From NCBI GenBank assembly GCA_943704425.1, contig CALSCP010000733.1, positions 65,872 to 129,871 of the forward strand: a stretch of DNA of 64,000 nucleotides, read 5' to 3'. Numbering within the stretch: position 1 is the stretch's first letter; every line of letters begins with the position of its first letter. Position numbers and translations under genes: made by a program. The stretch is from Ministeria vibrans ATCC 50519. Lineage: Eukaryota > Protista > Filasterea. Positions 23,207-55,792 of this stretch are shown here, one piece after another. Under the pieces are notes generated by a model, which was given only the letters and a program-made list of their open reading frames with translations, ran no database searches and had not been told where the DNA came from.

Positions 23207-23638
23207 TGGTGACCTGAGAGAGAGAGAATTAAACAAATTTATTAGTAATTATTTTGATTTTTTTCAGACTGACGAAATATTCTCTATATTGTACACTTTC
23301 CCTTTAACAGGTATTTAATTTAATCCTCTATACTAATTGCTAGTAATAAATGCTTTGCGATTCATAATAATAAATTTCACTCGCACACAATCTTGATACG
23401 TATTATGTCTGAGACTATCGTTCTTTTATCATCAGTCAGCAATGAGTGAGTCAATACGACGCTCCAGCCTCCAGTGCAACCACTTGAGTCATCAGCCTAT
23501 CCACTCAGTCGACAATCGGTTCACTAATCACTCATACCTCACTTAACTCTTCTCAATTTCACTTCTCAATCTTTTCACTCATTTCAGACTTCAGTCCATA
23601 TTCAATAATCAATTTCATTTTGTGTCTGCACCATCTCA

Positions 23639-26600
23639 ATGGAAACGCCAGACCCCGTCAGTACCGTGCGGGAGCCTGCATCGGGTTGCAGCTCGGCGCC
23701 GCCAGCCCCTCCGGCGTCGGCAGCGCCCTCAGGCGGCTGCGCGACTGTTCAAGCGGACCATGCGCGTGCCCACAGCCCCTCCGACGCCTCCCGCGCCTCC
23801 CCGCCGTCTGCATTCGAACAAGGTTTGTCCTACCCCCATGCCCGATCGTCCCATCACTCGACCACTTCACACTTTTCCTTTTCGATTTCACTTTTGTGTT
23901 CCTAATATTTTTTTTTTCTCTCTCGCTCTCTTGCTGACACTTCGACTGCGCTTGTGTCTCTGTCGCGCAGAGAACACTCCCTCGCATCCAGCGCTTTTTG
24001 AGGCTGTTGGTGATACGGCGCAGTCGAGTGACTCGTGCCCTGTGGAGACTCAAGTAGACGAGTTATCACAGCACTTGGCGTTGAGTGCGCTGGACGAAGT
24101 GGCCGACCAGATTGCGGCTGGCATTGTGGACGACCTCCTGGACGGGCTCGGGGCTGAGGATGGGGAGGAGCAGGATGCCGACGAGATTGCGGCTGGCATT
24201 GTGGACGACCTCCTGGACGGGCTCGGGGCTGAGGATGGGGAGGAGCAGGATGATGAGGACGATGGTTTCGACGAAGATGCGGCAGCGTCTGTGCAGGATG
24301 GGGATCAGCAGGGAGCAGACGACGATGGCGAGGACGACGATGGGAGCATGCAGATTGCAAGCGAGTCTGCCGTAGCGACTCGTCTTGAACATCTTCTGAA
24401 TGTGCTACCCGAATCACTGACACCCAAGAGCATTGGCGAGTTGCGCGCCGCCGGCACGTTGCCAAGCGCATGGCAGACGGTGTCAGACGAAGCACCAGGA
24501 CAACTGTTCCGTGTCATTGTACAAAAGCTCGCGCGCTCGCCGGTCAAGTTTCTTAGCATTACGTCTCTCGTAAGCGAACTCAAGAGCCCCGCTGCGCCCA
24601 CCGCCTTCACCGCCATGCTCAAGTGGATTTGCGAGCGCTGTCACGACACCGTCTTTCAGATTTTTGTGGACGGCATCAAAATGTACATTTCATTCAAGTG
24701 GGTCAACTGGGACTGGGAGGCGCTCTGCACCGTCCACGATTTTGTCCGCGAGTATGTTCAACGTGCCAAACTATCTGCGATTCCATTTGCTAACATGGCC
24801 GGCGCTTGTTCGGTCGGTGCCTTTGTCACGCAAAATGTACGCTCGCGTGGTCGCACTCGCGCCTTCTGTCAGTATTACTCCTCCGTCTTCGACGTCACCG
24901 TGTCTTCGGCTGCCCTCATTCCTCCCTTTGACACCGTCTCCCTTGCGGCCGTCAACTCCTCCTTGCTCTACGGTCCCGCCGTCAAGTCTACCGCATTGCT
25001 CTCGCCCACACAACTCGCTCATGTGGTCGCCCTGCAATACGCTCCACTCGTCGATTATGACGACTCTCACTTGCGTCACCTCACCCTGCCCGTCGTAGCA
25101 CTCGTCAATGGCCTTGTCGCCGTTGAATTTCCCTCGGTAGAGGCTGTTTTGGCAGCCAACTCTTCAAACGTGGTGGCGACCAATGATGAGACGATGGAGG
25201 AAGAGAAGCAAGTGGACAAGGATGTGAATGAGGTTGGCGAGAAGCGGGAGGTTGCGGTGGTTAAGACTGGTGGGGAGGCAAGCGAAAAGGTGGGCGAGGT
25301 TGCAGAGAAAAAAGAGGAGGGGGAGACGGACGAAAATGTAGAAGAGGAGGGGGAGGAAAAGAGTGAAGGCGAAGAAGAAGAAGAGGAAGAAGGTTGCGCG
25401 AAAGAGTCGAGTGCTGCTCTTGAGACTGTGACGGCCGAGTCCAAGTCTGATGTTTATCCAACTGCGGAGGCAGCTGTGTTGGAAGCGACAACAACACCAG
25501 TCACAACAGCAACAGTCGACCTGGTTGCAAAAGATGCGGATGTTTCCACTAACGTAGGCCAGACTGTTGCTTGTCTTCCTGCCGCCTCCATGACGTGGGT
25601 GTACTTTCCACGCACCCTTCTTGTGGCTGGCCGCACATTTGACAATGCTGAAGAGTACGAGCATGCCATGGACGTTGTTGCTCCAGGCACGCTTGTCTCC
25701 ATCACGTGTGTGCCCTTTCCACGCAAGACGACGACCTCCACGTGGCGTGTGATTGCCGCTTCAGCCGCCGCCGCGGAGAACACGAGCGATGAATCCACTG
25801 TCAAGACGGACGTGTGCATTCCCCGATATGTCCGCACCATTCGCCAAGCAATCTCGCAACGCAACGGCGTTCTTCACAAGAGTGCTCTCGAACCCCTTTC
25901 ACAGTCGAGCGGATCGCTACGACGTGCTCTTGCCGCTGCCGGCTCGCTCGAAAAATTTCTCATTCAAAACATTGCATTCTTTTTGCCCTTGCGAAACGAC
26001 CACCTCACCAACAACCCGGCGGCGCCGGGTCTCTCTAAATCCGATCGCCAATTTGTCAGCACCGCTGTGCGTGTGCCCGCATGCCAAGAAATGCGACCCA
26101 AAGTCGCCAAGAGCACTACCGTCACCGCTGCCGCTACCGCCATCGCCGCCTTTGCGACATCCAGTGCTGCAACAGCCACTACTGTCACCAATGCCTCGTT
26201 GATTCCCATGGAGCCCTCCATGATGACCGTGGCCGAAGAGGAAAAAGTGGTGTTGGCGCTCAAGGAAATTATTGGTCCTAAGGGCACCATGAAGACGCAA
26301 GTTGTCTGTGCAAGGCTTGGGACGCATCGCTTCATCAAGAATGACCTTGCTCACCTACGTCAGGGCAACATCACTTTGTTGAAGATTGCAAAGAATGTTG
26401 TTTCACGGCGCCCCTCACTTCTCCGCTTTGTCAACAAGGGTCTTGACGTGCAGTGGATTGCCTCTCCTGCCACCACCACCACCACCACCACATCCTCCTC
26501 CTCCTTATCTTCCGCTTCCGCTCCTGCTTCTGCCGCTACCACAACGACGACAGCAACACCGAGTGCGACGTCTTTCATTGCGTCGCCTGCATCACAAGCA

Positions 26601-29541
26601 GTGGCCGCATCCACCACACTCGCGACCGTCAAGCGACACGTTCGCTCCATTCTTTTGTCCAACGCCGGTCGTTTTTTCACACCTGACGAACTTTGCAGTG
26701 AGTTTTCCACCGCCTCCCGTGGTGTTGACCTAAACGCAGTCGCCCTCGCTATGGGCTACGACTCCCTTCGCTCCTTCCTTCTCGATGGCCTTAGTGACCT
26801 CTTTGTGTACACCATGGGCGAAGACAAACGCGCGCGCTTTTCGGCCGCCGCCTCGTTCGGTCCTGTGCCCGTCGCCGGCGGCCCCGTGCCCACCATCAAG
26901 ATCGAGCCGGCCATTCGTCTAGCGGCCATTGCCGCTCTCACCAGTGCCGGTCCGGCGGGCCTCGTGCAGTCGGATCTCATTCGTCGTTGTGAACTCCAGC
27001 GCAACACCTTTGCTAAGCTCGCCGCCAAGCACAACATTTCCATTCGCGAAGTCCTCCTGCGCTCCATGTGTGACATTATTGTTGTCAAGCAGGCGTCGCC
27101 CAACAAATGGTACTACATGCTCCGGTCTTCCGACCCCACCGCCTCCTCGGCGTCGTCGTCGACCACGTCAAATAGTGCTGCTCCCAAATCTAGCAAGGAC
27201 GGCATGGCGCTGTCGCGTGACCACTTGCCCAAGGTGCCACCCGCCTACGATGTGAAATTGGTACTCGACGAGTGCGATGCGCTTGTTCCTGAGAAACACG
27301 CCGTTGCCAGCGGTGTTTGTGCCATTGCGTGTCAGCTGGCACGTCTGTCCGGCTCCGAACACGACGATGCCGAGGCGCGCATGCGCGTGTGCATGGTACA
27401 GGTGTTTGTCGAGGCAGTCGAGCCCGCTTATCCTTTGGCGTCCTGCTACCTCTTTGACGTGGTCGACTCGACCGACCTTGGGGCGGGTCTGTCCATACCT
27501 TTGCGTTCGCTCTGTGCCAACGAGGCTGTTGTCAAGGTGTTTCACAGCGCCGTCAACGTGGCCATTCCGCTTTTCTACCAGCTCAACGTCACTTTTAAGA
27601 ATGTATTCGACACGGACGCCGCCGCTCAAATGATCCAGTCGCTGCGCAGTGCCGACGTTGTTGCAAGCACGGCTGTGTCGGTGGCGAGCGCCGACAAGTG
27701 GCGTTCGGCTGTCAGTCTCAATTGCTTGGGTGTGCCGCTGAATAGCGCCCTCGACGACTGCGGATGTGCTCAGCAGACGAGACCCGGTAGTGCTGTCGTG
27801 GCCCAAGAGTCACCAGACTTTTGGCAGAGGCAGCGTCCCCTGACGACCATCATGGTCGAGGAGGCGTGCGGCAACGCCACGTCGCTTCTTCTCCTGTATC
27901 GTCACCAGCGAGTCCTCGTGCAACAAGCTGCCCTCGAGTCGCTCTCGCTCGTCTCGCACACCCGTGCTGGTACCTTTGTATCCTCGAGTTCGACGCGCGC
28001 CAAGGCAGTCCGACGTGTGCAGCAGACGTACTCGCAGCGCCGATTGCGCGCCTCTCGCTGGCAGTCGGTCGCGCCCTCGTCACCCGTGCCGGTGCGTCTC
28101 ACGCAATGCATGCGATTTGGCTCTCGTTCGCAATTTGAGTTTCGAGCACCCGCGCCCACCGTCAACGTTCCCAAGACTGTGCCCTTTCCTCCCTCCCAAC
28201 GCCCAACCATGTTTGGTGTGCCTCCTCTGAACAAGGATGTGGAATTTGAGGCGCTCCTTAATGTCCTGCCCAAGCGTGTTGAAGTTGCGTTGCGTCTTCA
28301 TCGCGAACGTGTGACGCGCATTGTCTTTGACGTGACCGACGCTCACGTGATGCACATGTGCGACGGTACAACCGTGCCTCTCACTTCGACCACGTTTGGA
28401 AGTGCTGCCGCGAGCTCGCTTGTCGTCGACGCCGTCCAGCTGCTGCAAAACGAGTACCAGCGCACGGGCGGTGATGCCTATAGTCTTTTCGCCTCCGACG
28501 ACTCCGCATGGATCCCGAAAACTCTCCACCGTATCACCGTGACGCGCAACGACGCCGACGAGATCACTCAACTCATTTACCATGTGCGGCGCAGTGTCGC
28601 CGGCATTGCCGTGCTGCTGCAAGACCTCATTGCCGATCTCATTGTCACGCCGGCGCATCGCGCCGCCTCCATTGCCCCCAAGGCCTTTCTGGTGCTCGGA
28701 AGTGACTTGGAAGGTATCAATTTATATTCATAATAACATTATTATTATTATTTTTAGACTAATAATAAAAATATAATAATAATAATAATAATTATTATTA
28801 TTATTTTTATTTTATCAGTAATATTCGTGACTGACTTTTTTTTTNNNNNNNNNNTTTTTTTGCAGCGCGAAGTGATTTGCTGCGTGAAATTGGACGGGAA
28901 TTGATTGAGCGTCACCACAAGAATGTGGTTGTGCTGGATGCGTACTCGTTTGTTGGCGGTCATCCCAATGTGCCGCATGCCTCAGTGCGCTCTGCTCGTC
29001 GTGTCGCCGTCAAAGACCCCAAACATCTCGTACTTTCAAACGTCTTTTCTATTGTGACGAGCACCAATCATAACATTGCTATTCTTTATTGTTTTTCTTA
29101 ATGTGCTAGTCTACGGCAATTATGGACACGGCACGCAATTTCCGAGGAGACGTGATGATTGTGGACGAGATTATGTGTGAAGCGGACGCGCGAGCTCTTG
29201 TGAGTGTGATTCAGCAGGGAGTGGCGGTGGTGGCAACGGTGGGTGTCCATAGTCTGGCACAGCTTTTGTCGGCGCCCGGGCAGGGGGTGCGTGCGCTTAT
29301 TGGCGATGTGGACGTGACGGCGTCGTCGGCAAGCAAGACACTGCATCGTCTGCACACGCCCGCTGTGTCCGCGGCCGTCGAGGTGCTCGACTACAACAAC
29401 TACAGGGTGCACACGGACGTGCTGCGCTCTGTCGAGGAGATTATTCAGGGCCGCGAAGTGCCCGTCCAGACACGCTGGTCTCCCTCTCCCACCGGCAACC
29501 CCTCCTACGTCCAGTTTGCAACGCCCGACGCCGCATTATGA
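23639..29541 (+). CDS. Egalitarian/EXD1-like protein (wHTH/LOTUS-like repeats, OB-like segment, degenerate DnaQ-type 3'-5' exonuclease) fused to a degenerate Ycf45/SpoIIIAA-type AAA domain; exons 23639-23822, 23971-28713, 28866-29029, 29110-29541
   Basis: Exonuclease motifs YLFDV...VVKVFHS...NVFDT...FWQRQRPLT at ~27260-27900. Ycf45-like motifs LLNVLP, TLHRIT, LLREIGREL, VGGHPNVPH, DVMIVDEI, GVAVVAT and VQTRW at 28250-29541. The segment GYDSLRSFLLDGLSDLF resembles LOTUS/OST-HTH. Splice phases are consistent. Confidence 0.8.
24102..24252 (+). repeat. 75-bp in-frame direct repeat, two copies (AD(Q/E)IAAGIVDDLLDGLGAEDGEEQD)
   Basis: Near-identical copies start at ~24102 and ~24177. Confidence 0.9.
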
Positions 29542-29664: not shown

Positions 29665-31317
29665 TCAACAAGCGACACCCCACTGAGGCTTCGGGCTGGT
29701 CCAAGCAGTTGTGCCTGTGTCAAACAAGTCGGGCTTCGACGCAAAGCGGGTGACGCACCAGGCCGACAAGTCGTGGTTAAACTGCGATGCATTGGCGAGC
29801 ATCTGCGTCAAATCATCACCCTACGTCCATTTTCGTTGCAGTGGCATGCGCATCGAGTGTTCATCATACCGACCGCACGTCCCATCCGCTAATGTCACGA
29901 TTAAAGCTCGCCGCTTTATAAAAGGTACTTGCAAAGGTGATCACCTACGAAGAGAAAGAGAAGAGAGGGAGTTCAGCGAGAGAGGTCGCGAGCGATACGG
30001 ACAACTGACACTCTGTGTGTTCCAAGACTCAACGGATCCATTGAAGTTGGTAGCGCCAGAAAACATAGAGCCAAGATCAGTCGCCTACATGTGAATGTGT
30101 GTAATGATCTTGAGGCATACGAATGCGAGACAGTTGTACCTGAGACATATCCCACGTGTGCAGATCGCCATTAAATTGCTCGGCATTCTCAAACATGGAG
30201 CGGAAGGAGAGTGGCCCCGCGACCGACCACTGGTGGAGGTCGGTCTGGTTGAAGACGGCGCAGTCGCGAAAAGTAGAGTGAAAGCTTGTCACTTGCGAGA
30301 CTTTCCACGAGCCGACAGGATGATTGAATTTGCGGCAGCTACGGAATGTCGAGCGCAGTGTTGTCACCTGAATAAAGAAAAATAAATATAAATTAATAGC
30401 ATGTGAAGATAAAATGAGAAATGGGTCCCTGTCCAAGTAGGCAAGTACCAAAGAGAAAGGAAGAAGACCTGGAAGACAAACAAACAAAAAAGTGTGTTAA
30501 TACCTTTCGTGTGTCCCAATCTGCCAGATTCTGATTGAAACTTTCCGAGTTTTCAAAGGTCTCCTCGAGCGAAGTAATCTAGAAAGGTAGTGCACAGACG
30601 ATCAGACGAGCACATCAGCGGTGGCGTGCGTTGCACCTGCGACACATCCCACGCATTGAGGTTGCCTTCCACTCCAATGCCCGTGTGTTTGAATGAGCGG
30701 TACAGCGTCGTGACGCCTGCAAGATTGAGTCGGTCTGTCGCAAGGATGCGCATGAAGAAACACCCCCAGAAGTGCTCGCCGCCGTCCCCTAGACGAAGAG
30801 GACCCCACTGATCAACCGATATGAGCTTCAGTCGGTCTCCGCCGCTGGAGAAGCGCCATCCTTCAATGGTCCCGTTGATTCGAATGGTGTACGAATTGGG
30901 CGAAGGAAAGATGTGCAGCGATTGATTGAAGTGCGTCACGCGCACGACGGGGCTTCCGTCGCCAAAGTCCACGTCAAAGTCGTATGTGCCGTTTGCGTGC
31001 AGCGGAAGCTGGATCGAGCGCGAGTCGGATGCGCCTGTGTTGTCCGTTGTCCACGTCGATATGAAGTGCGTTGCGTCCGGCTCTGGCGGCGTCTCCAGCG
31101 CCGCAACGCGCGCCTCAATCGCCGCAAGACGGTTGGTGAGCGCCGACTCGGTCAACACCGCTGCGTTGTTGACGTAGAGACCCCCGGTGACGGCTACACG
31201 GCCCGCCGAGATCAGCAGATCGCCGTGCGCCGTCGACGCCACAAACGGATCGTCGTCAGCGCACGCCAACCCCAGTGTGTGTGCCACTAGAAGTACAAAC
31301 ACCGTTGACACGTGCAT
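29665..31317 (-). CDS. Secreted DUF285/BspA-like surface repeat protein (multi-exon)
   Basis: Signal peptide MHVSTVFVLLVAHTLGLACA, short coiled coil LTNRLAAIEARVAALE, then FISTWTT...IQLPL...YDFDVDFGDG, and repeats of the type FNGDLHTWDMSQV / FNRDISGWDVRS. Ends KPQWGVAC* (stop at 29665-29667). Confidence 0.82.
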
Positions 31318-31465
31318 ATCGAACTGCAGTTGAAGAAACTAAATAAAAATTAATTAGAAAAAATAGTATTGATCAGTGAGTGAGTGTCATCGAAAGTATT
31401 CGTGATCATAAATATCATCACAGTAAAATAATTATAGTATTTCAAAATAAACACAGTCATAGTCT

Positions 31466-32197
31466 TTACGTATCACACCCTGCAAAACTCGGCTGTGCCA
31501 AAGTCCAACTGGACGCACCGCTTGAAAACGAATTCGGCTTCGAGCTGATGAGCGGGAAACACCAAGCGCCAAGGTCCCTATTGAACGACGTTGCATCCTG
31601 GAACATGCCAGACGCATACTCCACCGTGACTGGGCGCCAGCTGGAGATGTCCCCGTTAAACGCATAGGCAGCATAAAACATGGACACAGTCCACTTGGCA
31701 CTGCTGGGCTTCCATGCACTCAGCCCGTTACCAACATACGCCGTTGCTCTGTTGAAGATGTTGGAGAAGTCCCGCACATTACTCACATCCCACTGGGATA
31801 AATTCCCATTGAACACCGCATTGTTATAGAATAGCTGTATCATATCAGTCGCGCTAACAGAAGGAATAGAAAGCGTGAGAGAGGCACAGACATATTAGAC
31901 AGACAGATAGACAGACAGAGTGTAAGAGATATTCGTTTGATTCTTACGCAGAGACATTCCACTGTGAGATATCGCCATCAAACAGGCTACTTGCAAACAC
32001 CTGCGACATGCGCCACACGGAACGAGTGTTCCATGTGCTTACAATGGGATTGCCCGCATTGTAGAACAGCCGGTTCATGTCCAATACTAAACCAACAACA
32101 GAAACAAACACAATCATAAGATGTAATAATAATAATAACAAGACGTAATAATAATAATAATAATAACAACAACAACAACAACAACAACAACAATAAC

Positions 32198-32259
<62 letters not shown>

Positions 32260-33472
32260 CAACAACAATAATAATAATAATAATAATAATAATCATAATA
32301 ATAATTATTATTATTCTTATTATTATTATTAGTTAGTTAGAAAATCGGATTTGTCTTGTTGTCTTTCACCATTTGACACGTCCCACTGGCTCAGGTCACC
32401 CGAGAAGGGAGTATCCTGGAAGGTGCGCTGCATGTTCGTGACCTGCCGCACATCCCACCCAGACAGGTCGACTGCGCCATCAAACGACGACCCGTCAAAC
32501 GTCGAAAAGAGCGAAGTCACACTGCACACGTAAGCAAATGGAGCGATTGGGTTTAGTAGCACACGCACACATACATACACATTTATATATATATACAGAG
32601 AGACACAGTATGAAGCACACGTGATGAACACAGATTGATTGAGTGCACTCACTCACACAATCAATCTATCACTTTACTCACGAATCACTCACTCATACTC
32701 ACACAGTACTTCGCACTCACACACACTTGTTCACTCACCTTGACGTATTCCACGACGACACATCTCCGTTGAAGACCGATGCGCTCTTAAACACTTTTTC
32801 AAGGGATCTCACGCCACCAATGCGGAAACTCGCCAGAGACGAGTCAAAAACTGACGCACCCTCAAACATGCTGGTCATTTGCTGGAGACTATCCGTCTCC
32901 CACTGCGACAGATCATCATCAAAACTGCTTGCCAAGTGGAACATTCCTCTCATCGACACAACCCTACGAACACCAATGAAATTACGGAGTAGTGCTATAT
33001 CAGCTGACAAGGCTCTCTTTCTCGCTCTCGACTCTCACCTCTTGACATTCCACTGCGCGACTCCCGACTGAATTCCCGAATTTTGGAACATCTCTTGCAT
33101 GTCCGTCACCTGAAAAAGAAAGAGTTTGAGATGAGCAATACCGATGAGCATCATAATTGATTCGATGTTCGATGACCTGTGCCGTGTCCCAGCAGTTCAT
33201 CGGCTGATTGTACTGTGTGGCACTGTCAAACATTCCCTTCATACTCACAACGCTATCAACACAATTGTCAGCTCAGAACACACATACACTGACATTGGCA
33301 TTTTCTTTCTTCTTTTTCTTACTTGGCAGTGTTAAACGAGCACAACATCTGGTTAAAAACTCCCGCTCCGGAAAAGAGCTCTTCTATTGTGGTTACTCTG
33401 CAGACACAACATGAGACAATACACAGACACACATACAGATCGATTAAACACATACACAATGGACACAAAATT

Positions 33473-33558
<86 letters not shown>

Positions 33559-35193
33559 CTTCCACACAACACAATATATAGTGTATACTGGATGGTATTA
33601 AAGGGCACCGTCGCATTGAAAACAGCGGCGTTCTTCAGCATGGCCTTCATCGACTGGCACGACTGCAGTTCCCAACCTCCCAGATCCACATTGAAGCGCG
33701 ATCTTGGAGTTTTCACGGAAAACATTGCAAACTGACCGCCAGTAAGAACATCCTCAATGAGCCCCTCAAAGATACTGGCAACAGACCTGACATGGCGCAC
33801 GTCCCACATCGCAAGCGACGCAGCCGAGTCGAGCGGCGCATGACGAAACGCGCATGATAAATTGGCTGGAATATTTGTCAGTGCCTGCGGATCCGAAATC
33901 ACATCGAGATGTGTGCATCCGTCAAAATAACCTCCACTCTCGCCAAGACGCAGTGCTGTGCCCCACTGCACAATATCAGTGAGCACCGGCGCATCTGCAT
34001 TCCCTTGAAACGCCCAACCCTCCAGGGTACCCTGCGTCACCACCGTGAACACGTCGCCTGTGCCCGTGCCATACACATGCGTCGCTCGCGTATCGTTCCA
34101 CGACGTCACCGTGTCCGACATGCCGTCACCCCACTGGACTGTGAACGAGTACACTGCGCCTGCCTGTGCCACAAGTGGGAGACGCACAGTCCGTGGCGTC
34201 GCTGCGTACGTCACGTTCCACACTGTCACAAAGGCATCGGACGGATACGGCAGTGCCGTCGCGCATTCTGCACCGCCAAAGTCTGCCGTGCACGCACACG
34301 AATAGCTCAAAATGGTGTTGCTGCCCACCACATTCGAACACGTTCCGTTGTTCAGGCACGGATTGCTCGCACACTAGGTAGACAAAACGATCAGTAGTTA
34401 TCATGTCTCTCCTTGTGGTTTTCCCATACCGGATCAACCTCGGTGCATGTTGTCCCAGTGTATCCTGCTGGACAGGTGCACCGAAAGGTAGTGCTTTCAT
34501 TTGCTGCGATCTCGGAACACACTGCGCCCTGACTGCACGGCGAGCTCCCGCACTGCAGACGACCAGAAGAAGCACAAACAAAGAAGAACACGTCAGCTAC
34601 TACACAGACCAACCATCATGCTGTAGACAAGAGTCGTCTTACGACATCCATTTCCTGACAGCGCACTCCAGAATAGAGTGGAGGGCAGGAGCAGTTGAAC
34701 GAGTGCCAGTTGTCAGAGGAGCAGACGCCACTGTGGAGACACGGCGACGAGTCGCACGCCGTAATTGCTTGGCAACTGCAGCTCGATAGCTGTGACTCCA
34801 GAAGCACCACACGCGCCGAGAGCTGCGTCGTTTGGTGAAGGACAAAGAGCAAAATATAAAACAAACAAAGAAGCAAACAAAACATTGTCGTTATGTTATG
34901 GTGTTGCCACAATTTGGTCGTACGTCGGCCGAAACGGCGAGTAGCTGCTGGATTTGCTGCGCAGTTATCACCACGTCACCAAGACGCAACGTGTTCGGCG
35001 TAAGCTCGGCCGTTTGCGACTGGGGATCGCTGCGTTGAGTGTGGTTGCGCGGAATGAGTTTCAACGAATCCGCTCGCACCACCGTCGAATCCGAATCACG
35101 CGCCACCAACACTGTGCCGGGGGTCGACAATGACCCAGACCACTCTTGGCCACGGCTGAAGGCGAACAGGGTAAACACCAATAAAATCTTCAT
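31466..35193 (-). CDS. Secreted protein with three EGF domains followed by DUF285/BspA-like repeats (multi-exon)
   Basis: Signal peptide MKILLVFTLFAFSRG; EGF units CDSSPCLHSGVC, CGSSPCSQGAVC and CASNPCLNNGTC; FVTVW...VRLPL...FTVQWGDG; many FNGNLSQWDVSNV-type repeats; ends AQPSFAGCDT*. Confidence 0.82.
32110..32330. repeat. Intronic (TAA)n/(CAA)n microsatellite
   Basis: Directly visible; similar tracts at ~35205-35270, ~37205-37255 and ~40568-40685. Confidence 0.95.
33476..33557. repeat. Intronic (CA)n microsatellite
   Basis: Directly visible; similar tracts at ~48109-48170 and ~54738-54874. Confidence 0.95.
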
Positions 35194-36304: not shown

Positions 36305-38570
36305 TTACGTTTTCTTCTGTTCAAACTTCTCGACTGTCTTTGCCAGAAACTTGTGCGACCCTCGAAGCTACAATCTCAAACATGAGTACAACATTTCAAA
36401 TAATCACACCTGAACTCTCTGACCTGTAAGGCTGAATTATGGCACTGAAAGTACTGATCGCGCGACATTTTGTCGCGAGAGCACTCCTGCGGATGCCACG
36501 CATGGAACAGCGCCGGATCCACTGCACGCGTCACATTCAACTATAGCATGTACATTGGTCAACCTTTCATCTCAATTTACAGCAGAGTGTTTTTTCGTCT
36601 GTCTGCGTGTGTGGGTGTGTGTGTGTGTGTGTGCTATGGACTTACGTTGGCCAACAGTAGGCGAGTCATCAAATCAACATCTTCACTTCCCCACCTGCAA
36701 AACAAGTGAATTCAAATCATATTCATTAATGTTTTGCTTTGGAATCTATTAAGCTTACCCCACAGGCAATTTCTTTGAGGTTTTGAGGAACCCCCCGACC
36801 ATATCATAATCCGACACAAAAATGCACAGCTGAGCAGAAACATTATAATTTATTTTCTTAGATTAGTTGAAACTTGCTCGGATCGTGCGCACGCGCCCTT
36901 TCTTTAGACCTACCATTCCGTAACCAAATGTTCGCCAAATGCCCCGCTCCTTGTCAACATCCGGTTCCTTTCCGTTGTACAAACTGCGGAGAAATCAAAC
37001 ATGAATAATGACTGTATCAACACACCCTCAGTTTTCTCGCTCTCCACACACACACACACACACTCTCTCTCTCTAACCTGAATAGAATAGGCGCGTACAC
37101 CCGCGAATTTCTCTTGGTGTTGGTTTGGCAACGCATCATAAAGCCCCGAAGTACAACCACATCCACATCGGCAAAGAAAAGCAACTGCACCACAGTAATT
37201 AGTATAATAATTATAATAATAATAATAATAATTATTATTATTAATATTATTATTGTTGTTTGTTTTTATGTATCTTACCGCCCTTTCACCAAACATCGTC
37301 TTCACATTTGACACTGCAGTCTCAATAGCAGTGGCCCTCGAGAAAGCATTCATTTCCTGGGCTACTTTAGATATAAACGCCAGAATTTTGGTCCTAAAAA
37401 GAAACAACGATAAAAACAAAACATGTCATACTAACTTTTTTTCGTATACTCTTCGGAAAAATCATGCAAAATCTTTGATGCTTCTTCCATGGAGGCATCG
37501 TCTCCCATATAGCCAACAAACACGCGAAACACTGATTTGGGTTCCGTTGACTGAAGCTCACGTAAGCGCATTAAAAATCTGGTGAAATTACGAATAATAA
37601 TAATTATTAGTATTAAGAAACAAAACCAAAACAGGTTTCTCTCTCACTTTTTCAGGGTTGGTAATCGCCCTGCCAATGGAATGACAATGTTCACCACCTC
37701 CACAGATAGATCAAGTTGATCAACATGAACCAGCTGCAACGCCGTAAAAGGTCGCACCAGCTCTACACGCACCGTCCCAATGCTTCCCTACACAACAACA
37801 ACAATAATAATCCACTACCACACAACACTGCACAACCCATCACCTCAATTCAAAAACGATTAATGATATTATTACTATAATTATAATAATGTAATGCACA
37901 ACCAACAATAATACAACACACGACACACAAACAAACACGCAACTCCATCCAATGTCAATGGCCAAGGCAAAAACATCGCATCGCACAACACAAACTCATA
38001 CCGTTTCAAAGACAATCTTCATGTACAAGACATAGTCGGTGCCGCGCTGGCGGTCCGTGTGCCGCTGTATGTGCTCAAGCGACACCAGCTCGCTCCCGCG
38101 AAAGCGCCCGTCGCCCTGAAGCAGCGCCATGGCCCTGTTCACCACGTCCTGCGTCTACACCGAATGCACGCAAAGCGCCGGGTTACGTGTGTGTCACAGC
38201 CCCCGCTTCCCCGAACCTCAATGCGATCTGCACCGCCCATCGTTCGCCGTGGTCTCTCGTCCGCCGCAAAATACACATAATTCGGAGTCACTGCATCCCA
38301 CACAGGCACGTCAACAGGCCGAGCTGGCTGGAAGGCTTCTGCTGGAGCACCGCCGCGTCCGTCGCTGCCCCCCCGACACGGACAGCACCGCTCTGCAACG
38401 ACAAAACACACACACACACACACACTCAACGTTTTCTCGCCCAACACACATTATATCGCACCATCCTCCGCTCCCAACGCCTGAATTAGAACCACCAACA
38501 GCACCAAGTTGCTGCACACAAGATAGAACACGACAGCTTGCTTGGACAGCAGCGTAAACGTCACCGCCAT
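36305..38570 (-). CDS. Type II membrane chondroitin GalNAc-transferase-like glycosyltransferase (CHGN/GT7-type), multi-exon
   Basis: Anchor MAVTFTLLSKQAVVFYLVCSNLVLLVVLIQ. Spliced motifs RGTDYVL, VNIVIPLAGR, FSRATAI, LLFFADVD (DxD), RVYAPILFS, GIWRTFGYG, VGGF, WGSEDVDL, LFHAWHPQEC. Stop at 36305-36307. Confidence 0.85.
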
Positions 38571-38764
38571 GTCAGCATGAACGAAAAAAAATTAACAAGA
38601 CGTGCAAAGCAGATCTCAGACTTTGGAATAAATCGTCAAAGTGAACAATTCACCATTGTTAAACTAAATTTTCTTATCCTCTCCATCTTTTGCTCCGTGG
38701 CTGGTGTACACTCTTACTGGCGCATTGGATCCGCCTGATGACTCGGCGGTGCGGCCTCGTGAAC

Positions 38765-40614
38765 ATGAAGTGGAGTCGGGTTGCGCTGCTCCTGAGCACG
38801 CTCTGCCTTGGCGCTGTCCTCGTCGTCTGGTCCGACAAGGCACGGGTACTCCAGCTCCACCGCACTCCCCCACTCTCTTCTTTGTTTTTCCTTCTTTCAA
38901 TCGCATGACACAAATGAGAAAATATTACACTGAAATTCAGACACGCGAGGAATCTTTTAAAACCCCCTTTTTTTCTCACAGGACGTTCAAGACATTCTCT
39001 ACGGCACCAACAACGACAAGGTAGGAACAAGTCAGGCTCATCACGCTCTCACCACAGACGAACGTCTCTTTTAAGAGTATAGATGCGACACATTAACTCA
39101 TTGAAATTTCTCTCTGTCTCTCTCTCCTTTTTTTTTTTGAATAGGTTGAGATTGTCTCAGAGCGAATTGATCTTGTGCGCAGCGCAGCGGCGTCGGCAGT
39201 GGACGCACCCTCGACGGGGGCTAAGACGACGCGCAGCCTGCGGCCCGGGCTCACCATCATCGTCAAGACGATGGGGGACACGCAGCGTGTGCTGGTGCTC
39301 TGCAAAGAGATCCGCCACTTCTATCCGAGCGTCGACATTCTCATTGGCGATGACGGCCAATCGGCCATTCCCGCCGACGCCAAAGCCCACCTTGCCCGCC
39401 TCAAGGTGAAGTACTTCATTCTGCCGCTGGACGCGGGTGCGTCGGTGACGCGCAACTATCTCATGGACAGGACAGAGACAGAGTTCTTCTGCACTGTCGA
39501 CGACGACTACATCTTCACCGAGCACACCCGCCTCGAGACGCTCATGGACACCCTCAAGCAGAACCCCTCCTTGGTGTTGGCGGGCGGCGCCGTGTCAGAC
39601 CGTGTTGATCTTTGTGCTCGAATGGTCATTGAAGACACGGTAACACAATCATAATAACACGATGATGAATTTAATATTTTGGTAACATTCTTTGTTTTTC
39701 GTTTTTTCTGTTTTCAGATCCTTCTCCTGGTTCCCGACTATCATGCAAAACTCAAGGGCGGTTGTCTTGTGTGCGATTTTATTGCACAATTCTTTGTTGG
39801 TCGCACCGAAATGTTACAGCAGGTAAGAGTTACTATGCTCTTTAGTTTTTTCTCATTCGCCCTCGTCGTGCAGGTTCGTTGGGACGATCAACTGAAGACG
39901 GGCGAGCACGAAGAGCTCTTCTTGCGTTTGCGCGAAAAGTTTCCGTACAGTGCCGGTTTTTGTCCCTCTGTGAATGTTGGACACAAACAGCGCTCGTGGA
40001 ACGAACGAAAGAGCTCGCGTGTTGGCAATAAGTAAGGGGCAAGAGAAGTACATGTGGATTCTTCAATTTCAACAGTGAAATGAGTGGGATTTTGTCGTCT
40101 GTTTACTCTTCTCATCTGCTGCTCTCTTTCTCAGCACCTATATGGAACTGCGCGATCGAGGAATCAAGTACATCAACATCTCTCTGGCGCAACATGGTCT
40201 CACTGGCATTGGCTACGAGATTGGCGAGAAGATTATTGCGCACGGTGATGTTGGAACCGAACGAGTTTCGTTTCTCTTGCAAAAGGTCAGAACCCCAAAG
40301 TACAACCCTAATAGATCACTGACTGAACTGCATTCTCTTTTCGGTAATAGCACCGCTCGAGCGGTGTTGTCATTGACGAGAGCGAGGCGCTGTTTCCACC
40401 GCGATGTTCGAGCAAGGCTGTGCGGTCGGTTGTGCACAAGGACTCATTGAAAAAGTGGTGTGAGGACATTAGCTTGTGGACCTTTGAAGACATTCCCGAA
40501 GTCGAGCTGTTTATCAATGCGCCTGATTTCAAGGTAATATTATAATAGTATTCTATTTTTTTCCTTTTATTATTATTATTGTTATTATTATTATTATTGT
40601 TATTATTATTGTTA

Positions 40615-40659
<45 letters not shown>

Positions 40660-43537
40660 GTATTAGTATTATTATTATTATTATAATATCAATATTGATT
40701 GTATCATACATGTGCGTCTTTTAGATTCTCGCTCGTGAACGAACGGAGATTTATCGCATCTCACAGGCGATTTTGCGCATGCACTCGGCCATGGCACGCG
40801 AAAAATTTGAGTATCAGAACTTTGTGCGTGCGGAGCGTCGTGTGGATCCGCTGCACGGAACTGAGTGGCAAATCCGCATGCGCGTGCGGCCTCAAGACGG
40901 CGAGTCGAGTGCGCGCGAAGAGACATTTGTCATGATGGAGACAATTGAGAAGAAGAATGCCGTCTTTGTGCAACTGCAGCAGTCCGAGGCGACCCGTGTG
41001 AACTTTGTCGTGCCCATCTTCAATGCCTTTGAGCGACTGCAGCGCCTCGTCGAAAATGTTCGGCGCATGTCGCCCGAGCCACGTCTGGTCATTGTCGACT
41101 ATGGCAGTACCGATGGCAATGTGAATCAGCTTCTCAAGAAGTCGGGTGTGGATCATCTCTTTATCGACATTCGCGGTCAGAAGTTTAGCCGAGCAGGTGG
41201 TTTGCAGGCGGGCATCAATGCGGTGTCGAACAGCGAGCTCATCTTCACACTCGACGCGGACATTGACATGCCCGCCAACCTCGTCTCCGTCATCCATCGC
41301 CACGTCGTCAAGGGCAAGCAGATCTTTGCACCCGTTGTTTTCTCCTTTTACAAGGGTCACGACAAGATTTCTCTCAAGGCTAAAGGTAAAGAGTGGAAAA
41401 AAACGAAAAAAAATTAGCGACAACAATAATAATAAACGATGCAATTTGTGTAGGATACTGGAATCCGTCTTACAATGTGGACAAGCACGGCTGGTGGCGC
41501 CGTGAAGGGTTTGGTATGATTGCCGCCTACAAGTCAGATGTGCTCTTCGTGGGCGGATTTGATCTGATGAAGTTCCAAGACAAGTACGAAGCAGGAAGAA
41601 CAGTTGGGAGAGTCATCTAACAACTTTCATTTTAGGTGGGGAGGAGAGGACATTGACCTTGTGACGCGCATGATGCACAGTGGTTACAAGATTTGGCGAT
41701 CGCTCGAGCCCAATTATTATCACAATTTCCACCCACGCACTGCCTGGGGTGGCCATGTCAATGCCCAAGTGCCTTTAAAGGTCAATCATGTGTTTTTTTT
41801 TCTCTCTGTGTGTTCATAATTGAGTTAATAGTAATAATTGTTTTTGTATAGATTTTTGTGTATGATCTTCCGGAGGAATTTAATGTGGCTCCACTGGCAC
41901 TGAACCAAGCGCATCTCCACGACTGGCCGCAAAAGTACAAGATGGGTCGCGACGAATGGGACTGCACCAAAAGCATGTTTTCCATTGAAGTCAAGTTTCA
42001 TCAAATGTACGCAGTGTGATTGTGTGTTTGATGTATATTTTTATATTATTTAATTTTTATATTTTTATTATTCTTATTTTATCACTATTATTTTATTATT
42101 ATTATTGTGTGTGTATGTGTGTAATTGTGTGTGTGTGCATGATTATATTTATAGAGTATTATAATTATATATATTTTGTGTGTACGTTCCAACCTCAATT
42201 TCTTTCTTTCCCATGGTAGGCTGCTGAAGTCGCCGTTTGTCACGACCGAAGCAGCAGAGGCAGACCTGTTTTACGTGCCCATCTACAGCGTGTGTCTGCT
42301 CAACCACAACCTGCCTCTCAACGCCTCCTACTCGGCCATTCAACATAATCACGCCGTCAAATGGATTAGCGAGAAGTTTCCCTTTTGGAACCGAACTTTG
42401 GTAAGCAAATGAACGGCATGGTTATACAAAATTGTCATCATATCTTTTGTAAACTATTTTTGTGTATTTGATAGGGTACCGACCATATTTTCGTGTTGGC
42501 GCAAGGTCTGGCGCGCAATCTGCTGGGGAATGACAATGGACTGGGAAACACCATTGCGCTTACTGTCAATTCTGATCTGTCTCCGCCCCCAAAGACGTAA
42601 GGAAAAGAGGCGAGAAAGAGAGAGAGAGAGGAAGCAGGAAGAAAGAGATGAATATTTTTTTGATTGCGAGTGTGTGAACTGACTTGGCAATGTAGAATGA
42701 AACATGCGTTCTACCACCCGTGGAATGACATTGCGATTCCGCCTTTCTTGCATGACATGACGCAGTTCACCAATGTGGACCATTCTCAGCGCAACTACAA
42801 GGTCTTCTTCAGCGGATCCATCAAGCCCTGGAATCTCGCGTATAGCAAAGGTGTTCGACAGGTACATAAACAGAAACAGAGATAGGGGGGAGGGAAAAGA
42901 AGAACAAAGTGGTTAGAAGACATCGTGATAGAGAGAGAGAGAGAGAGAGAGGAGGGAGAAAGAAACAAAGCGATCGAGAGAGAGCATTCTGTCAGAGACT
43001 CACTCACTGGTAATGCATAGTACATTGCAAAGCACTATGCCAACCAGACCAACTGGTACGTGCACCAGCGCACTACCAATCTCTCTCCTGAGCTGCGCGG
43101 TCAGTTTGTGTCGGCTATTCGTCACTCTGTATTCTGCATTTGCCCCGAGGGCCTCTTTGCATACACTCCGAGAATTACCGAGTCCATTCTCAGCGGTACG
43201 CACACACAAAACGCAGATCCAGTTTATTCACTCACTCACCTGTGTACGGTCAGGATGCATTCCCGTGCTGATGAGCGAGTCACTGGTGCATCCCTTCAGC
43301 AACCTGATTGACTTCAGCACGTTCACCGTGCAACTGGCGCCCTCCGATGTCACGCGTCTCCCGCAGCTGCTCTCCGAGATCAGCGAGAGTGAAATTCGCG
43401 CAAAGCAGCGGGTCATCCAGTCCATCGCCCCCATGTTTCTCTACCACGACACTCCCATCCCGGGCGACGCCTTCTACTCCATCATGGACCAGCTTGCCGC
43501 TAAGAAGCTCCCTATCAAGCAACCGACCGCCAACTAA
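38765..43537 (+). CDS. Three-domain glycosyltransferase: B4GALNT1/2-like (GT2/GT12 fold) + CHGN/GT7-like + exostosin GT47; type II membrane, multi-exon
   Basis: Anchor MKWSRVALLLSTLCLGAVLVVW. Domain 1: LTIIVKT...ILIGDD...ASVTRN...VDDDYIF...KTGEHEELF. Domain 2: FSRAGGLQAG, LDADID, FAPVVFS, WRREGFG, WGGEDIDL. Domain 3: KIFVYDLP, ADLFYVP, PFWNRTLGTDHIF, FCICPEG, ESILSGCIPV. The linking exons splice in frame. Confidence 0.87.
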
Positions 43538-44869: not shown

Positions 44870-46759
44870 ATGGTCTCGTTTACAAACCGGGACATGAAGG
44901 TGATGGTTGGAATTGGCGCTGGATGGACCATTGTCGTGTTTGCCGTCTTCTTTGCTCGCACCGGCGAAATGGCGTCGCTCCAGGCGCATTCCCAAGAGCC
45001 ACTGGGACCCTTGGTAACAATGCTATTAAGTGATGGTGTGTGTCTTAAAGTGGCGTGGCACAACAGTCGCACAATCTAAAACGGAACGGTCACGCAGAAT
45101 GACCAAGTGGCTCTTGCGCCGAATACACACTCGCCTGCTGATGCTATGGCCCACTCCTCGACAGCCGAGTGTCTGCACATCGATCCCCAGCTCTCAGGGT
45201 CGCCCGCAACTGATCTGCAGCGCTCCCGAGCCAAAGGCGGTGCGATTGTGACGCGCGCCAGATCGTTCTATGCTCTGCTGGAGGGAGTCTTTGACGAGCG
45301 CGGGTGGACAATGCGGCCACGACGCAGCCGAGAGCAAGTGAGGGCTAGTGGGAGATCTGTCAACGACCTTGATAGCGACGTGAGTGCAACAAGTGTGTAT
45401 GTGTGTGTGTGTGTGTGTGTTGTGAGTGTGTGTGTGTGGGTTATGTGTCTGTGTGGGTTGTGTGTGCGCGTATCGTCCTTATGTGTGTGTGCTTCTGTTC
45501 TGTCTAGGTTGCACTCGCTTGGTGGGACAACTTCAGTACGAAATATTTCACCAAGTTTGTTGGAAAGATGTTTATCGCATACATCGAGGTGAGTGCGATG
45601 GTATAGTATAGTGGGTGTCAGACTCGTTCTAATGCGATGCATTTTTTGTGGTGGGTGGGTTTTTTTAGGGCATTGGTATGAGCGGATTGGGCGGAATGAA
45701 ATCGGACCAGTTTGCAGTGAAGCGGGAGTACCTTCGCTCCAAGGGCTGTGAAGTGACATTTATGCCACTTTCCTATGACATGAGCACGGCGGAAGACTGT
45801 CGTGACTTTTGGAAAGACTGGAAAGCGAATGAGAGTGCGCGAAATGCGCTCTGGCTCGTCAAGCCTGACATGTCAGAACTCACAAGAGAAAGAGAAAGGG
45901 AGGATAACGACTGATAGAGTGTACATATAGACATGGCGGAGGACGAGGCATATCGGTGGTGCAAGGAGAGGCGTCGCTCAAGACTGCACTGGGGGCCCTT
46001 GGGGAGTGTGCAGGAACAAAGGAACAGAACGGGCGCACTGGCGTCAAAGGGACAGATGCACGAGTGGTCCAGCGCTATTTGGTGGATCAGCTTCTCTTGC
46101 AGCAGCGCAAGTTTGACATTCGCCATTATATGTTGAGTAAGTATGCGTTGTGTGTATGCGTATGTGGCATGTTATGTGCTGTTGAAAAGTGGCACACACT
46201 TCCTCTCATTTTGCTCTTACTCATTTCTCTCTCTTTCTCTCCCCCTCCTTCACTTGTTTTCGCTACAATTTTGTTCATATATGTCTGTCTGTTTGTCTGT
46301 TTAATTTTTTTTTCTTTCAGTTGCGAGCACTCGGCCCTTTCTCGTGTTTCATCGCTATGGGTTTCTGCGTCGCTCCATTGTGCTCTTCAACGAGTCGTCC
46401 TCTTCCAATGCAACCGATGACTCTTCTTCAGCTTCCTCTGCGCTCTATCGCGCACAGCACATTGTCAATACGGTCCTTCAGCTCAAGGCGGGTCAGGATT
46501 CCCTCTCAGACGCACAGGTCTTAATGGTTTCTATGTCTGTCACGACTCTTCACATTGTATCGTTTGTGATTGTAGTGTGTTTTTTGGATGTTGTTTTCTC
46601 TCTCCACCTCTCTCTCTATATACCTTTGTTTTTTTTTGTTTTTTACTTTTTATNNNNNNNNNNNNNNNNNNNNNNNNNNNNNNNNNNNNNNNNNNNNNNN
46701 NNNNNNNNNNNNNNNNNNNNNNNNNNNNNNNNNNNNNNNNNNNNNNNNNNNNNNNNNNN

Positions 46760-51259: not shown

Positions 51260-51733
51260 AGTGCGATATTTCAAGAGAAAATTTGTTTTTGAAAATCTGT
51301 GATTTTTGTTTGCAATTTTAAAAAACACTTTGCTTTCAAGTGACTCAATCGACTCTCAATTGAACCCCAATCGACAGTTCTACAAGGCCGTCCAGACGGA
51401 TACAGTGATGCATAATGCGCCACTGCATGAGGCTGCAGACGCGAGTCCTGCTCAATGGCACGGGACACAGCACAACGAACGACACTTCAGTCAGACTCGC
51501 TTCATTTTCTGACTGAGTTTGTTTTATATATAAGTAAACGGCAGATTTGCATCATTTAGTCTCATGGCATACGTCGTACTGGCGTTAGTAGTGGCACCAC
51601 CACCCTCACTCCCTCAGAAGTGAACCGACTTATTCGACCATCAGAATACGTCAAACCGCAGATGTTGTACAAAACGAGTTTTTCAGATCGTCAAAAAGTG
51701 GCGCATTTCATTCACTTTTTTTTTTCCGTCTCA

Positions 51734-52288
51734 ATGAGTGTTCAAGAGCTCTCGTCGAAGGCCATCGCGCGTGGCCAGGTTATCTACGATACGTACCGTC
51801 CGCTTGGAACGCACGCCAGCTTTGATCAGATCACAGACGAGGAAATTGCGGCGATTGGTGGTCGACAAAAGTTTCTCGACATGTTTACGAACTTTTACAC
51901 GAAAATGTTCGCTGACGAGCGCATGCGCGTGCTGTTTGACATGCGCCACAGCGACGTCAATGTGCCTCCTGAAGATCACGGCAGACGCCTTGGCTTGTTT
52001 ATGCTTGCGCGGTTCGCTGGCGACACTGAATACCGAATGTTGCGCGGGAACGTCTTTTCGCGACTTGGCGAAGCGCACCACCGCGCTCGAGGGTGTCCTA
52101 TGCGCACCGCAGCGCACCAGGGACGCCAATTTACACTTGCCCAGCGCAACACATGGCTCGGCTACCAGGAGCAAGTCCTCATCGAGGCAGGCGCGGACGC
52201 CAAGTTCCAAGCGAAAATGCTCAAGTTGTACGCTGGCTATGCGATGCCCTTTATCGAGGCTGGCAAAGCGTGGCTCAAGGATGACTAA
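51734..52288 (+). CDS. Truncated (2/2) hemoglobin, group II-like, intronless
   Basis: IGG motif, B9-B10 FY (TNFY), CD1 Phe (RVLF), proximal His in LGEAHH, G8 Trp in RNTWL. Confidence 0.8.
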   Translation: MSVQELSSKAIARGQVIYDTYRPLGTHASFDQITDEEIAAIGGRQKFLDMFTNFYTKMFADERMRVLFDMRHSDVNVPPEDHGRRLGLFMLARFAGDTEYRMLRGNVFSRLGEAHHRARGCPMRTAAHQGRQFTLAQRNTWLGYQEQVLIEAGADAKFQAKMLKLYAGYAMPFIEAGKAWLKDD

Positions 52289-54184: not shown

Positions 54185-54830
54185 TCACCAAAAGGCACAC
54201 CAGCCAATGAAACACTGACAGAGGTTCTCCATCGACGTCGCCTGAATGATCAGCCGGTCCACCTGCGTCGGCACGTCCAACGTATCGTCCGTGTCAAAGT
54301 CACGACCTAAACACAAGGAAATCAACCAATGCACAATCAGTCGCTTTCGTTCGTACCCGTCAACTTGGCCTGAACTCGATTGATGACACTCACAGCCTTC
54401 TCATTGAGCGCCTCGGGCTTGACCGCAGAGCGTGACTCCATTGCAGCAACACTATGTGAATGCAGATTGGACGTACTACTGTGCACACTGCTCGACGGCG
54501 ACTCTTCCACACTGCTCGACGGACTTACTCCCCCTCCTACGCCACCACCACCACCACCACCTCCTCCTCCTCCCATCGCACTGGCAATGGTGCGACTGCT
54601 CACACTCGCACTAGCCCCTCCACCTCCATGGTGGTCCATCAGCGACGTCACAGGCGACTCCTCATCCCCAAGTAGTGTTGTCTCTCCCTCAAATGTGCTC
54701 GCGCTCTTGGCCCCCTTTCCTCCCTTAATCACCTACAACACACACACACACACACACACACACATCTGGTCAACACACACACACATACACACACGCACAC
54801 ACACACACACACACATACACACACGCACAC

Positions 54831-54877
<47 letters not shown>

Positions 54878-55726
54878 TACAGCAACTTATATCTTCTACC
54901 TTCGTCTTGGTAGTCTCAAGCAGACGCCAGTTGATCAGCGGGTCGTACACAAAGGCCTCCAGCACGGCCATGAGCGAGTCTTTGTGTGCGCGCAGCAGTC
55001 GCATCACAGACTCACACGTCACGCGGTAGTTTCCTTCAATCCCACTCACTTCCATTGCGTTGATCAGCATCCGCGTCAGTCGGAACGGAATCCGCTCAGG
55101 GAATTTGTCTCGATGCATCGCCACTTCAAAGCTGAAAAACACAAAAGAAATAAAAAAACCCCCCGTGTTAAAACACTCCTCTATTTGTGTGTAGTATTCT
55201 TACCAGTCACCAAAATCAATGTGAAGAATCTTCCCACTGAACCGATCAAGCATAAGATTGCTGGGATGGCGATCGCCCAATCCCAAAATGTACCCAACCA
55301 TCGACATAACCGCAAGCGACCGAGTGTAGTTGAGACGACGGTCCAACCACACCTGAGCAGCAGAGGAGAAAAAAAAAAAAAGTCGATTAGCGGCGCTGGT
55401 TAATTTTTTTGTTTGTTTTGTGTGTGTTTTCACCTCTGAGTTGGGACTCTTGAGCCACAAGACTTTGTACAAATCGCGTCCCTTTGTGTTATCAAGTGCA
55501 TGGCGGAAAACCTCAATCTTCTGGGGCACCGTCAGCTTGTCATACTCGGGTGCCATCTGCAGCATGAGACGATGCTCAATGTTCAGCAAAATCTTGCGCT
55601 GTTCACGGTAATCGCGAATGAGAGCATGCAGGGTATCGTGCCCCGGAACCCACCCCAGCAGACCCGAGTTGGGCGACAGTGGAATCACACTGTATGTCCG
55701 GATGCTCAAATGATGTTTGATCGTCT
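54185..55726 (-). CDS. TOR: TOR kinase, 3' fragment only (most of the kinase domain, insert and FATC)
   Basis: [83 protein letters not shown]; FATC ends [14 protein letters not shown]. No HEAT/FAT/FRB coding sequence upstream. Confidence 0.93.
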
Positions 55727-55792
55727 CTACACAAGTAAACGCGCGTCAACACACACGCACACACCACAACTACAAAAACACCACACACAGAG

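Follow-up and report, generated by a model that had tools for sequence, protein, structure and literature searches.

A single Ministeria vibrans polypeptide joins GT12-like, GT7 and GT47 glycosyltransferase domains

Animal glycosaminoglycan (GAG) backbones are built by fixed pairings of glycosyltransferase (GT) domains, GT31 with GT7 and GT47 with GT64. A gene of the filasterean Ministeria vibrans (ATCC 50519) raises the question of whether domains of three GT families can be carried on one chain outside these pairings and, if so, what such a chain would make. The gene lies on the plus strand at 38765..43537 of the window, the whole 64,000-nucleotide (nt) stretch taken from contig CALSCP010000733.1 (assembly GCA_943704425.1, positions 65,872 to 129,871), and all positions given here are those of the window. 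An earlier note, made from the letters alone, had read the gene as one polypeptide with B4GALNT1/2-like, CHGN/GT7 and exostosin domains, joined in frame and with intact motifs. Our analysis bears this out: one spliced, expressed transcript runs across both domain junctions and encodes a single membrane-anchored polypeptide, in which the anchor is followed by a B4GALNT1-type GT12-like domain (domain 1), a helix and cystatin-like domain with a GT7 domain (domain 2), and a GT47 domain (domain 3).

The gene model has 16 exons with splice sites fixed by script. Its 15 introns are all GT..AG, measure 51–213 nt and mostly exceed the exons in AT content, and the spliced frame of 1076 amino acids (aa) has its sole stop at its end. 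Exon 1 (38765..38845; joined to exon 2 in runs X1 and X7) carries the start ATG and aa 3–26, the single stretch of the protein with a Kyte-Doolittle value above 1.6; the same scan found no comparable hydrophobic segment ahead of domain 2 or domain 3. This stretch is a type II signal anchor and gives the protein a type II, Golgi-like topology. With an alternative in-frame ATG, at 38738, the protein could be nine residues longer. Exon 2 (38982..39020), placed by the gene model and contig record coordinates, encodes the stem, and exons 3–6 (39145-39639, 39718-39822, 39874-40031 and 40135-40285) encode domain 1, at aa ~74–335, delimited by phmmer and by a profile match to the B4GALNT1 structure 9h6j. 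Exon 7 (40351..40533) encodes a linker, aa 344–404. The 5' part of exon 8 (40725..40979) encodes the helix and cystatin-like region seen in the predicted structure (aa 405–489), and the remainder of exon 8 (up to 41385), exon 9 (41454-41583) and exon 10 (41636-41780) together encode the CHGN-type GT7 domain (40980..41780, aa ~490–710), as placed by Pfam and a CHSY3 alignment. Exons 11–16 (41852-42006, 42220-42400, 42475-42596, 42696-42861, 43021-43195 and 43254-43537, stop codon included) encode the GT47 domain assigned by Pfam (aa 717–~1070). Retention of intron 7 or intron 10 would introduce a stop within 3 or 12 codons.

Parts of the window are contained in 17 of the 20 sequencing runs checked, and for the part holding exons 1–11 we read splice joints on contigs of runs X1, X5, X7 and X16. 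All nine contig joints coincide with model introns 1 and 3–10, with no alternative joint, and removal of intron 2 is implied by the record coordinates on the contigs. The joints come from three RNA-like runs of three studies (nine in X1, eight in X5 and six in X7); the RNA nature of these contigs is a program's guess that is backed by the exact GT-AG skips. Run X16 showed none of the nine joints, is contiguous across introns 1–6 (its whole coverage) and is DNA-like. Joints 6 and 7, which lead from domain 1 to domain 2, were found in X1 and X5 (two studies), and joint 10, from domain 2 to domain 3, in X1, X5 and X7 (three studies). The start of exon 12 appeared as a loose end past exon 11 in all three RNA-like runs, implying that intron 11 is spliced. 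Record 4 of X5 covers exons 6–11, and record 1 of X1 (3687 nt) carries exons 1–11 in order and continues into exon 12. The earlier note had named transcripts that end between the domains as grounds for giving up its reading; the X1 contig crosses both inter-domain junctions. Joints 12–15 were inferred from the open frame, the collinear Pfam matches and the word share, not from contig joints. With untranslated ends assumed, the word share in runs X1–X4 (one study) was 0.58; the values expected are 0.589 if all introns are spliced out, 0.416 if exons 1–11 alone are present and 0.693 if introns 12–15 are retained. Minor truncated isoforms may exist in addition; contigs lose rare isoforms.

Domain assignments were made with Pfam, run exon by exon. 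Exon 3 matched PF00535, and its single significant phmmer match in the PDB was human B4GALNT1 (9h6j, E 1.9e-14). Profile A4, built from the related protein P0130, three exons and four relatives, matched 9h6j with E 3.1e-43 and extended to Y501/R505. Similarity to the human protein begins ~50 residues past the anchor, close to human residue 279. Exon 3 gave no Fringe or GT31 match up to E 1, whereas the CHSY-like protein P0102 does match Fringe. The motif DDD is present at 159–161, along with K81, D159/D161, E254, H277, Y295 and R299. For B4GALNT1, nine donor-site residues are named, including K284, R288, D356, D358, N437, R457, H483, Y501 and R505, and five of them (K284, N437, R457, Y501 and R505) are GT12-specific (PMC12217166). 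By an alignment made partly via relatives, six of the nine are kept in domain 1 (K81, D159, D161, H277, Y295 and R299); among the GT12-specific five, mapped in the same way, three are identical (K81, Y295 and R299), one is a conservative change (Q229) and one is lost (T249). Domain 1 is thus homologous to the GT-A domain of B4GALNT1/2 (GT12), DxD and His included. It differs in lacking a counterpart of the N-terminal half of B4GALNT1, in its changes at R288, N437 and R457, and in its fusion with GT7 and GT47. The donor of domain 1 is likely, but not surely, uridine diphosphate N-acetylgalactosamine (UDP-GalNAc).

In domain 2, exons 8, 9 and 10 matched CHGN (PF05679) and exon 10 also matched GT7C (PF02709). 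The predicted structure of exon 8 (predicted local distance difference test 86, with 39 sequences in the alignment) has a helix and a cystatin-like fold at aa 405–489, followed by a GT-A half. Its cystatin-like part aligned with tarocystatin over 75 residues (VIA Z 10.7, root-mean-square deviation 1.9). The best structural matches of the model as a whole were CHSY3/CHPF (Foldseek, 9o4g_A, E 3.4e-9), and the top VIA match, CHSY3 chain 9q8z_B, had a Z of 12.0 over 199 residues at a deviation of 15.6, with the two parts oriented differently. According to PMC13389171, the CHSY layout is transmembrane segment–GT31–helix–cystatin–GT7, and active GT7 domains are marked by DxD, xED and a C-terminal His that are absent from the inactive CHPFs. 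Alignment to CHSY3 identified all of these in domain 2: DAD at 581–583 (D581/D583), WGGED at 669–673 (E672/D673) and H697/H700. Helix, cystatin-like domain and GT7 with active motifs therefore make up a CHSY layout in which GT31 has been replaced. Both the GT12-like and the GT7 domain retain their catalytic motifs. The likeness to CHSY1/3 and CSGALNACT1/2 extends from the type II anchor through an N-terminal GT-A domain, helix and cystatin-like domain to a GT7 domain with DxD, xED and His. In contrast to CHSY, the N-terminal GT-A domain is GT12-like, not GT31, and a GT47 domain is appended after GT7.

Exostosin (PF03016) matched three of the six exons of domain 3 (exons 12, 15 and 16), collinearly at profile positions 43-100, 201-250 and 252-292, and exon 12 alone among single exons passed the GT47 cut-off. 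No GT64 follows, the stop codon lying ~50 residues past the end of the PF03016 match. By exon, EXT2 was a weak match (E 0.25), a PDB sequence search with exons 12 and 15 gave no useful match, and the Atlas look-alikes of domain 3, which we treat as leads only, are GT47 fragments, most of them from plants or algae. GT47 enzymes carry a conserved acid on helix C-alpha-4 (E349 in EXT1, E293 in IRX10) and differ in donor, which is glucuronic acid (GlcA) in EXT1 and xylose in IRX10 (PMC9178029). Domain 3 carries R975/E978, and E978 falls in the section of exon 15 that Pfam matched. Judging by motif and not by direct alignment, E978 is the likely C-alpha-4 acid, and the GT47 domain likely retains its catalytic motif. 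Again by motif, the N-terminal part of domain 3 presumably resembles IRX10-type more than EXT-type GT47, so GlcA is not assured as its donor. A GT47 domain is common to this protein, to EXT1, EXT2 and EXTL3, and to plant single-domain enzymes such as IRX10. Compared with the EXT proteins, however, it is C-terminal here and lacks GT64, and its N-acetylhexosamine (HexNAc)-transferase partners are inverting GT7 and GT12-like domains. Though akin to CHSY and EXT in design, the protein has neither GT31 nor GT64 and so belongs to neither family.

To relate this architecture to others, exon 8 was scanned against 1.84 billion representative proteins, which gave 558 matches; counts below refer to the best 150 of them. 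One of these 150, P0130 (658 aa, JGI/IMG, from a 2312-nt contig), carries domain 1 followed by domain 2, with the linker of exon 7 kept between them (E 2.6e-8), and is 28% identical over 567 aa; it ends before any GT47 could show. Read by eye, the P0130 tail appears frameshifted. Since both domains and the linker have stayed together at 28% identity, the pairing of domains 1 and 2 is likely old. A domain 3 match was found in none of the 150 GT7 relatives and in none of 53 further proteins, and the three-GT gene itself appeared in the searched collection only as a 205-aa exon fragment (P0001). This absence of a three-way fusion is weak evidence because such a collection easily misses spliced relatives. 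Word-indexed searches for longer homologues found none among 1063 candidates with exon 8 and none among 79 with exon 16; with profile A1, three of 7995 candidates matched (P0130, P0202 and P0203). Pattern matches on viral contigs were confirmed as relatives in 0 of 9 cases for exon 8 and 0 of 8 for exon 3, as were 0 of 202 in prokaryote genomes for exon 3. At least three of 591 metagenome contigs matched P0130; the three listed match in domain 1 only, and P0130's own contig was absent among the matches listed.

Relatives of the first two domains occur in varied company, and chains with several GT domains are frequent among the matches. The commonest named architecture among scanned exon 8 relatives was PA14 with CHGN (16 of 49), proteins that we take, from their architecture, to be of B4GALNT3/4 type; the Ministeria protein differs from them in having no PA14. 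A 1587-aa protein of Mastigamoeba balamuthi (P0002, EukProt) has six tandem GT7-like domains, two of ten hand-picked matches (P0013 and P0036) are GT2+GT4+GT7-like chains, and GT12-like matches with other partners include L001, L003 (GT12-like with fn3) and P0202. In L001, an intronless frame of 991 aa (4365-7340, plus strand) contains a GT12-like domain and, after it, a second region of GT-A-like appearance by eye, with no Pfam match there. The start of P0185 gave a by-eye impression of a GT2 remnant; Pfam finds none, and we discarded it. In the literature consulted, partly in excerpt, we found no GT12+GT7+GT47 protein, and choanoflagellate GAG-enzyme homologue lists (10.1101/139022, 10.1101/211789) may contain related fusions. 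The earlier note had called the three-way combination unfamiliar. The mix of GT12-like, GT7 and GT47 was indeed not found elsewhere in the searches made, but three-GT chains as such have precedent, both in P0013 and P0036 and in protein A111/114R of Paramecium bursaria chlorella virus 1 (PBCV-1). The latter, alike in design, has three GT domains, each ~300 aa long, which are proposed to attach three sugars of a single glycan; it differs in being viral, in its proposed action outside the endoplasmic reticulum–Golgi path and in its sugars (PMC7826918).

Running a profile of domain 2 relatives over the six frames of the window revealed a second GT7 gene, a stand-alone CSGALNACT-like gene at 36424..38570 on the minus strand. 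It has at least 11 exons, with three open options for the exon 5/6 joint and an approximate 3' end. Its ATG at 38570 lies 195 base pairs from the ATG of the three-GT gene at 38765, so that the two genes stand head to head and, judging by position, probably share a promoter. Its first joint matches a loose end in X1, where it is spliced. The encoded protein has an anchor, a cystatin-like region, a GT7 domain with DVD, WGSED and HxxH, and a Cys-containing tail, and CHGN was matched by three of the eight exons scanned. Its identity to domain 2 is 25%, and in a quick tree it joins the CHSY/CSGALNACT-like rows on a long branch (Shimodaira–Hasegawa-like approximate likelihood ratio test, SH-aLRT, 99); identity and placement together argue that it is not a recent duplicate of domain 2. 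It is likely a chain-priming enzyme.

What, then, would the three-GT protein make? GT12, GT7 and GT47 are families of inverting, nucleotide-sugar-dependent enzymes. Since all three invert, the protein likely makes a beta-linked glycan, rich in HexNAc, in the Golgi lumen. For domains 1 and 2, a HexNAc-rich product, as the earlier note had supposed, is still the best guess. We favor, at about even chances, a reading in which the three domains add beta-linked sugars in turn to one growing short or branched glycan. The membrane-anchored protein would reside in the Golgi lumen, where domains 1 and 2 would probably each add GalNAc and domain 3 a uronic acid, pentose or hexose, and the fusion would channel a single acceptor through the three steps. 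A short unit, defined or branched and carried by glycoproteins or glycolipids, would be a likelier product than a long chain, and the CSGALNACT-like neighbour would act in the same pathway. The single frame and anchor, the contigs that cross the domain junctions, the motifs kept in the domains and the conserved pairing of domains 1 and 2 speak for this reading. PBCV-1 A111/114R offers a precedent for three single-step GTs in one chain (PMC7826918).

Several observations weigh against this sequential assembly. Domain 1 lacks R288 (D85) and R457 (T249, beside K248) and has Q229 in place of N437. Because N437 and R457 are GT12-specific and yet altered, its donor is possibly other than UDP-GalNAc. 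GT modules swap partners freely in relatives (P0002, L003, P0013 and P0036), so a shared product need not follow from fusion. Two quick trees, one with P0130 entered twice and with P0001 and short or weak domain 2 matches left out, the other of 40 hand-picked matches, placed domain 2 in neither the CHSY/CSGALNACT-like nor the PA14-bearing group. None of three groupings was rejected by approximately unbiased (AU) tests (p 0.25 with CHSY/CSGALNACT-like, 0.41 with PA14-bearing proteins and 0.43 for the third), and the trees thus give no ortholog or donor claim for domain 2. Finally, it is gene position alone that ties the neighbour to the same function.

A tentative alternative is that GT7 and GT47 alternate as a copolymerase to make a GAG-like chain of HexNAc and uronic acid, GT47 having replaced GT31, with the GT12-like domain branching or capping the chain and the neighbour priming it. 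The retained CHSY layout, helix and cystatin-like domain included, is consistent with such an enzyme, as is the grouping of the neighbour with CHSY/CSGALNACT-like rows (SH-aLRT 99). The GT7 domain of CHSY adds GalNAc to GlcA (PMC13389171), the GT47 domain of EXT1 is a GlcA transferase (PMC9178029), and a choanoflagellate makes chondroitin (10.1101/139022). However, the cystatin-like domain is also found in the single-step enzyme CSGALNACT (PMC13389171), domain 3 is weakly EXT-like by exon with mostly plant and algal fragments as look-alikes, and P0130, the one relative with domains 1 and 2 among the best 150, stops before any GT47 is visible. The fuller version, a GAG-like polymerase assembled independently from parts of three animal pathways, with GT7 and GT47 making a new GalNAc–uronic acid chain, the ganglioside-synthase-type domain branching or capping it and the divergent CSGALNACT-like gene priming it, we regard as doubtful. 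The data do not distinguish a copolymerase from sequential assembly in a single turnover, and short-glycan assembly fits equally well. Of the earlier note's self-contained Golgi polymerase, the Golgi-like topology is supported; its self-containment is weakened by the head-to-head CSGALNACT-like neighbour, which that note had missed, and sequential assembly fits as well as polymerization.

Returning to the favored sequential assembly, its premise of one acceptor would fail if the domains were merely co-tethered, acting on separate acceptors or in separate pathways and sharing only an anchor and regulation. This we consider unlikely: GT7-like and GT12-like modules do pair with many partners among the matches, and the missing GT7–GT47 pairing (none in the 150 or the 53 others) suggests that domain 3 may be a recent addition, but P0130 retains domains 1 and 2 with their linker at low identity, and known multi-GT Golgi enzymes work on one chain (PMC9178029, PMC13389171). 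Rather improbable is the idea that the enzyme has two activities, one of its domains being catalytically dead and serving as a scaffold or to bind the acceptor. CHPF (PMC13389171) and the GT47 domain of EXTL3 (PMC9178029) are precedents, and three of the nine named donor-site residues are lost or altered in domain 1; against this, domains 1 and 2 both have DxD, acid-base and His motifs, and relatives of domain 1 likewise have no Arg at the R457 position. That the locus is an assembly artefact, or holds two or three neighbouring genes, could be argued from the early stops from a retained intron 7 or 10, the rare isoforms that contigs lose and the indirect view of joints 12–15; this reading is largely refuted by the repeated joints 6, 7 and 10 with no alternative, by the lack of an anchor before domain 2 or 3 and by a word share that fits the full model.

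In this expressed gene, modules known from animal GAG synthesis, the cystatin-like spacer included, have been recombined across their fixed pairings and joined to a GT12-like domain. A single soluble construct could serve for testing GT7/GT47 co-polymerization, non-animal GT12-like transfer and the glycan displayed by the cell. If the protein is a true sequential three-step enzyme, it would be a useful but modest addition, possibly a tool for one-pot synthesis.

The rest of the window is intron-rich, apart from an intronless open frame of 3959 aa at 11327-23206 (plus strand) that carries a P-loop motif close to its C-terminal third. It is followed at 23547-28733 (plus strand) by a 1728-aa open frame with acidic repeats, whose end resembles an AAA/SpoIIIAA-like domain by eye and continues near 29110-29541. 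At 30077-34373 (minus strand), several exons appear by eye to encode BspA/DUF285-like repeats and an EGF-like module, possibly surface proteins with repeats of bacterial-type origin. Downstream of the three-GT gene, at ~44870-46420 (plus strand), an N-terminal hydrophobic anchor-like segment precedes a tubulin-tyrosine-ligase match (PF03133, E 3.9e-7); if both parts belong to one gene, it would encode a membrane-anchored ligase of this type. A short open frame at 51560-52288 (minus strand) looks globin-like by eye, and 54337-55745 (minus strand) holds exons for the C-terminal end of a TOR kinase (mTOR, E 4.7e-67).

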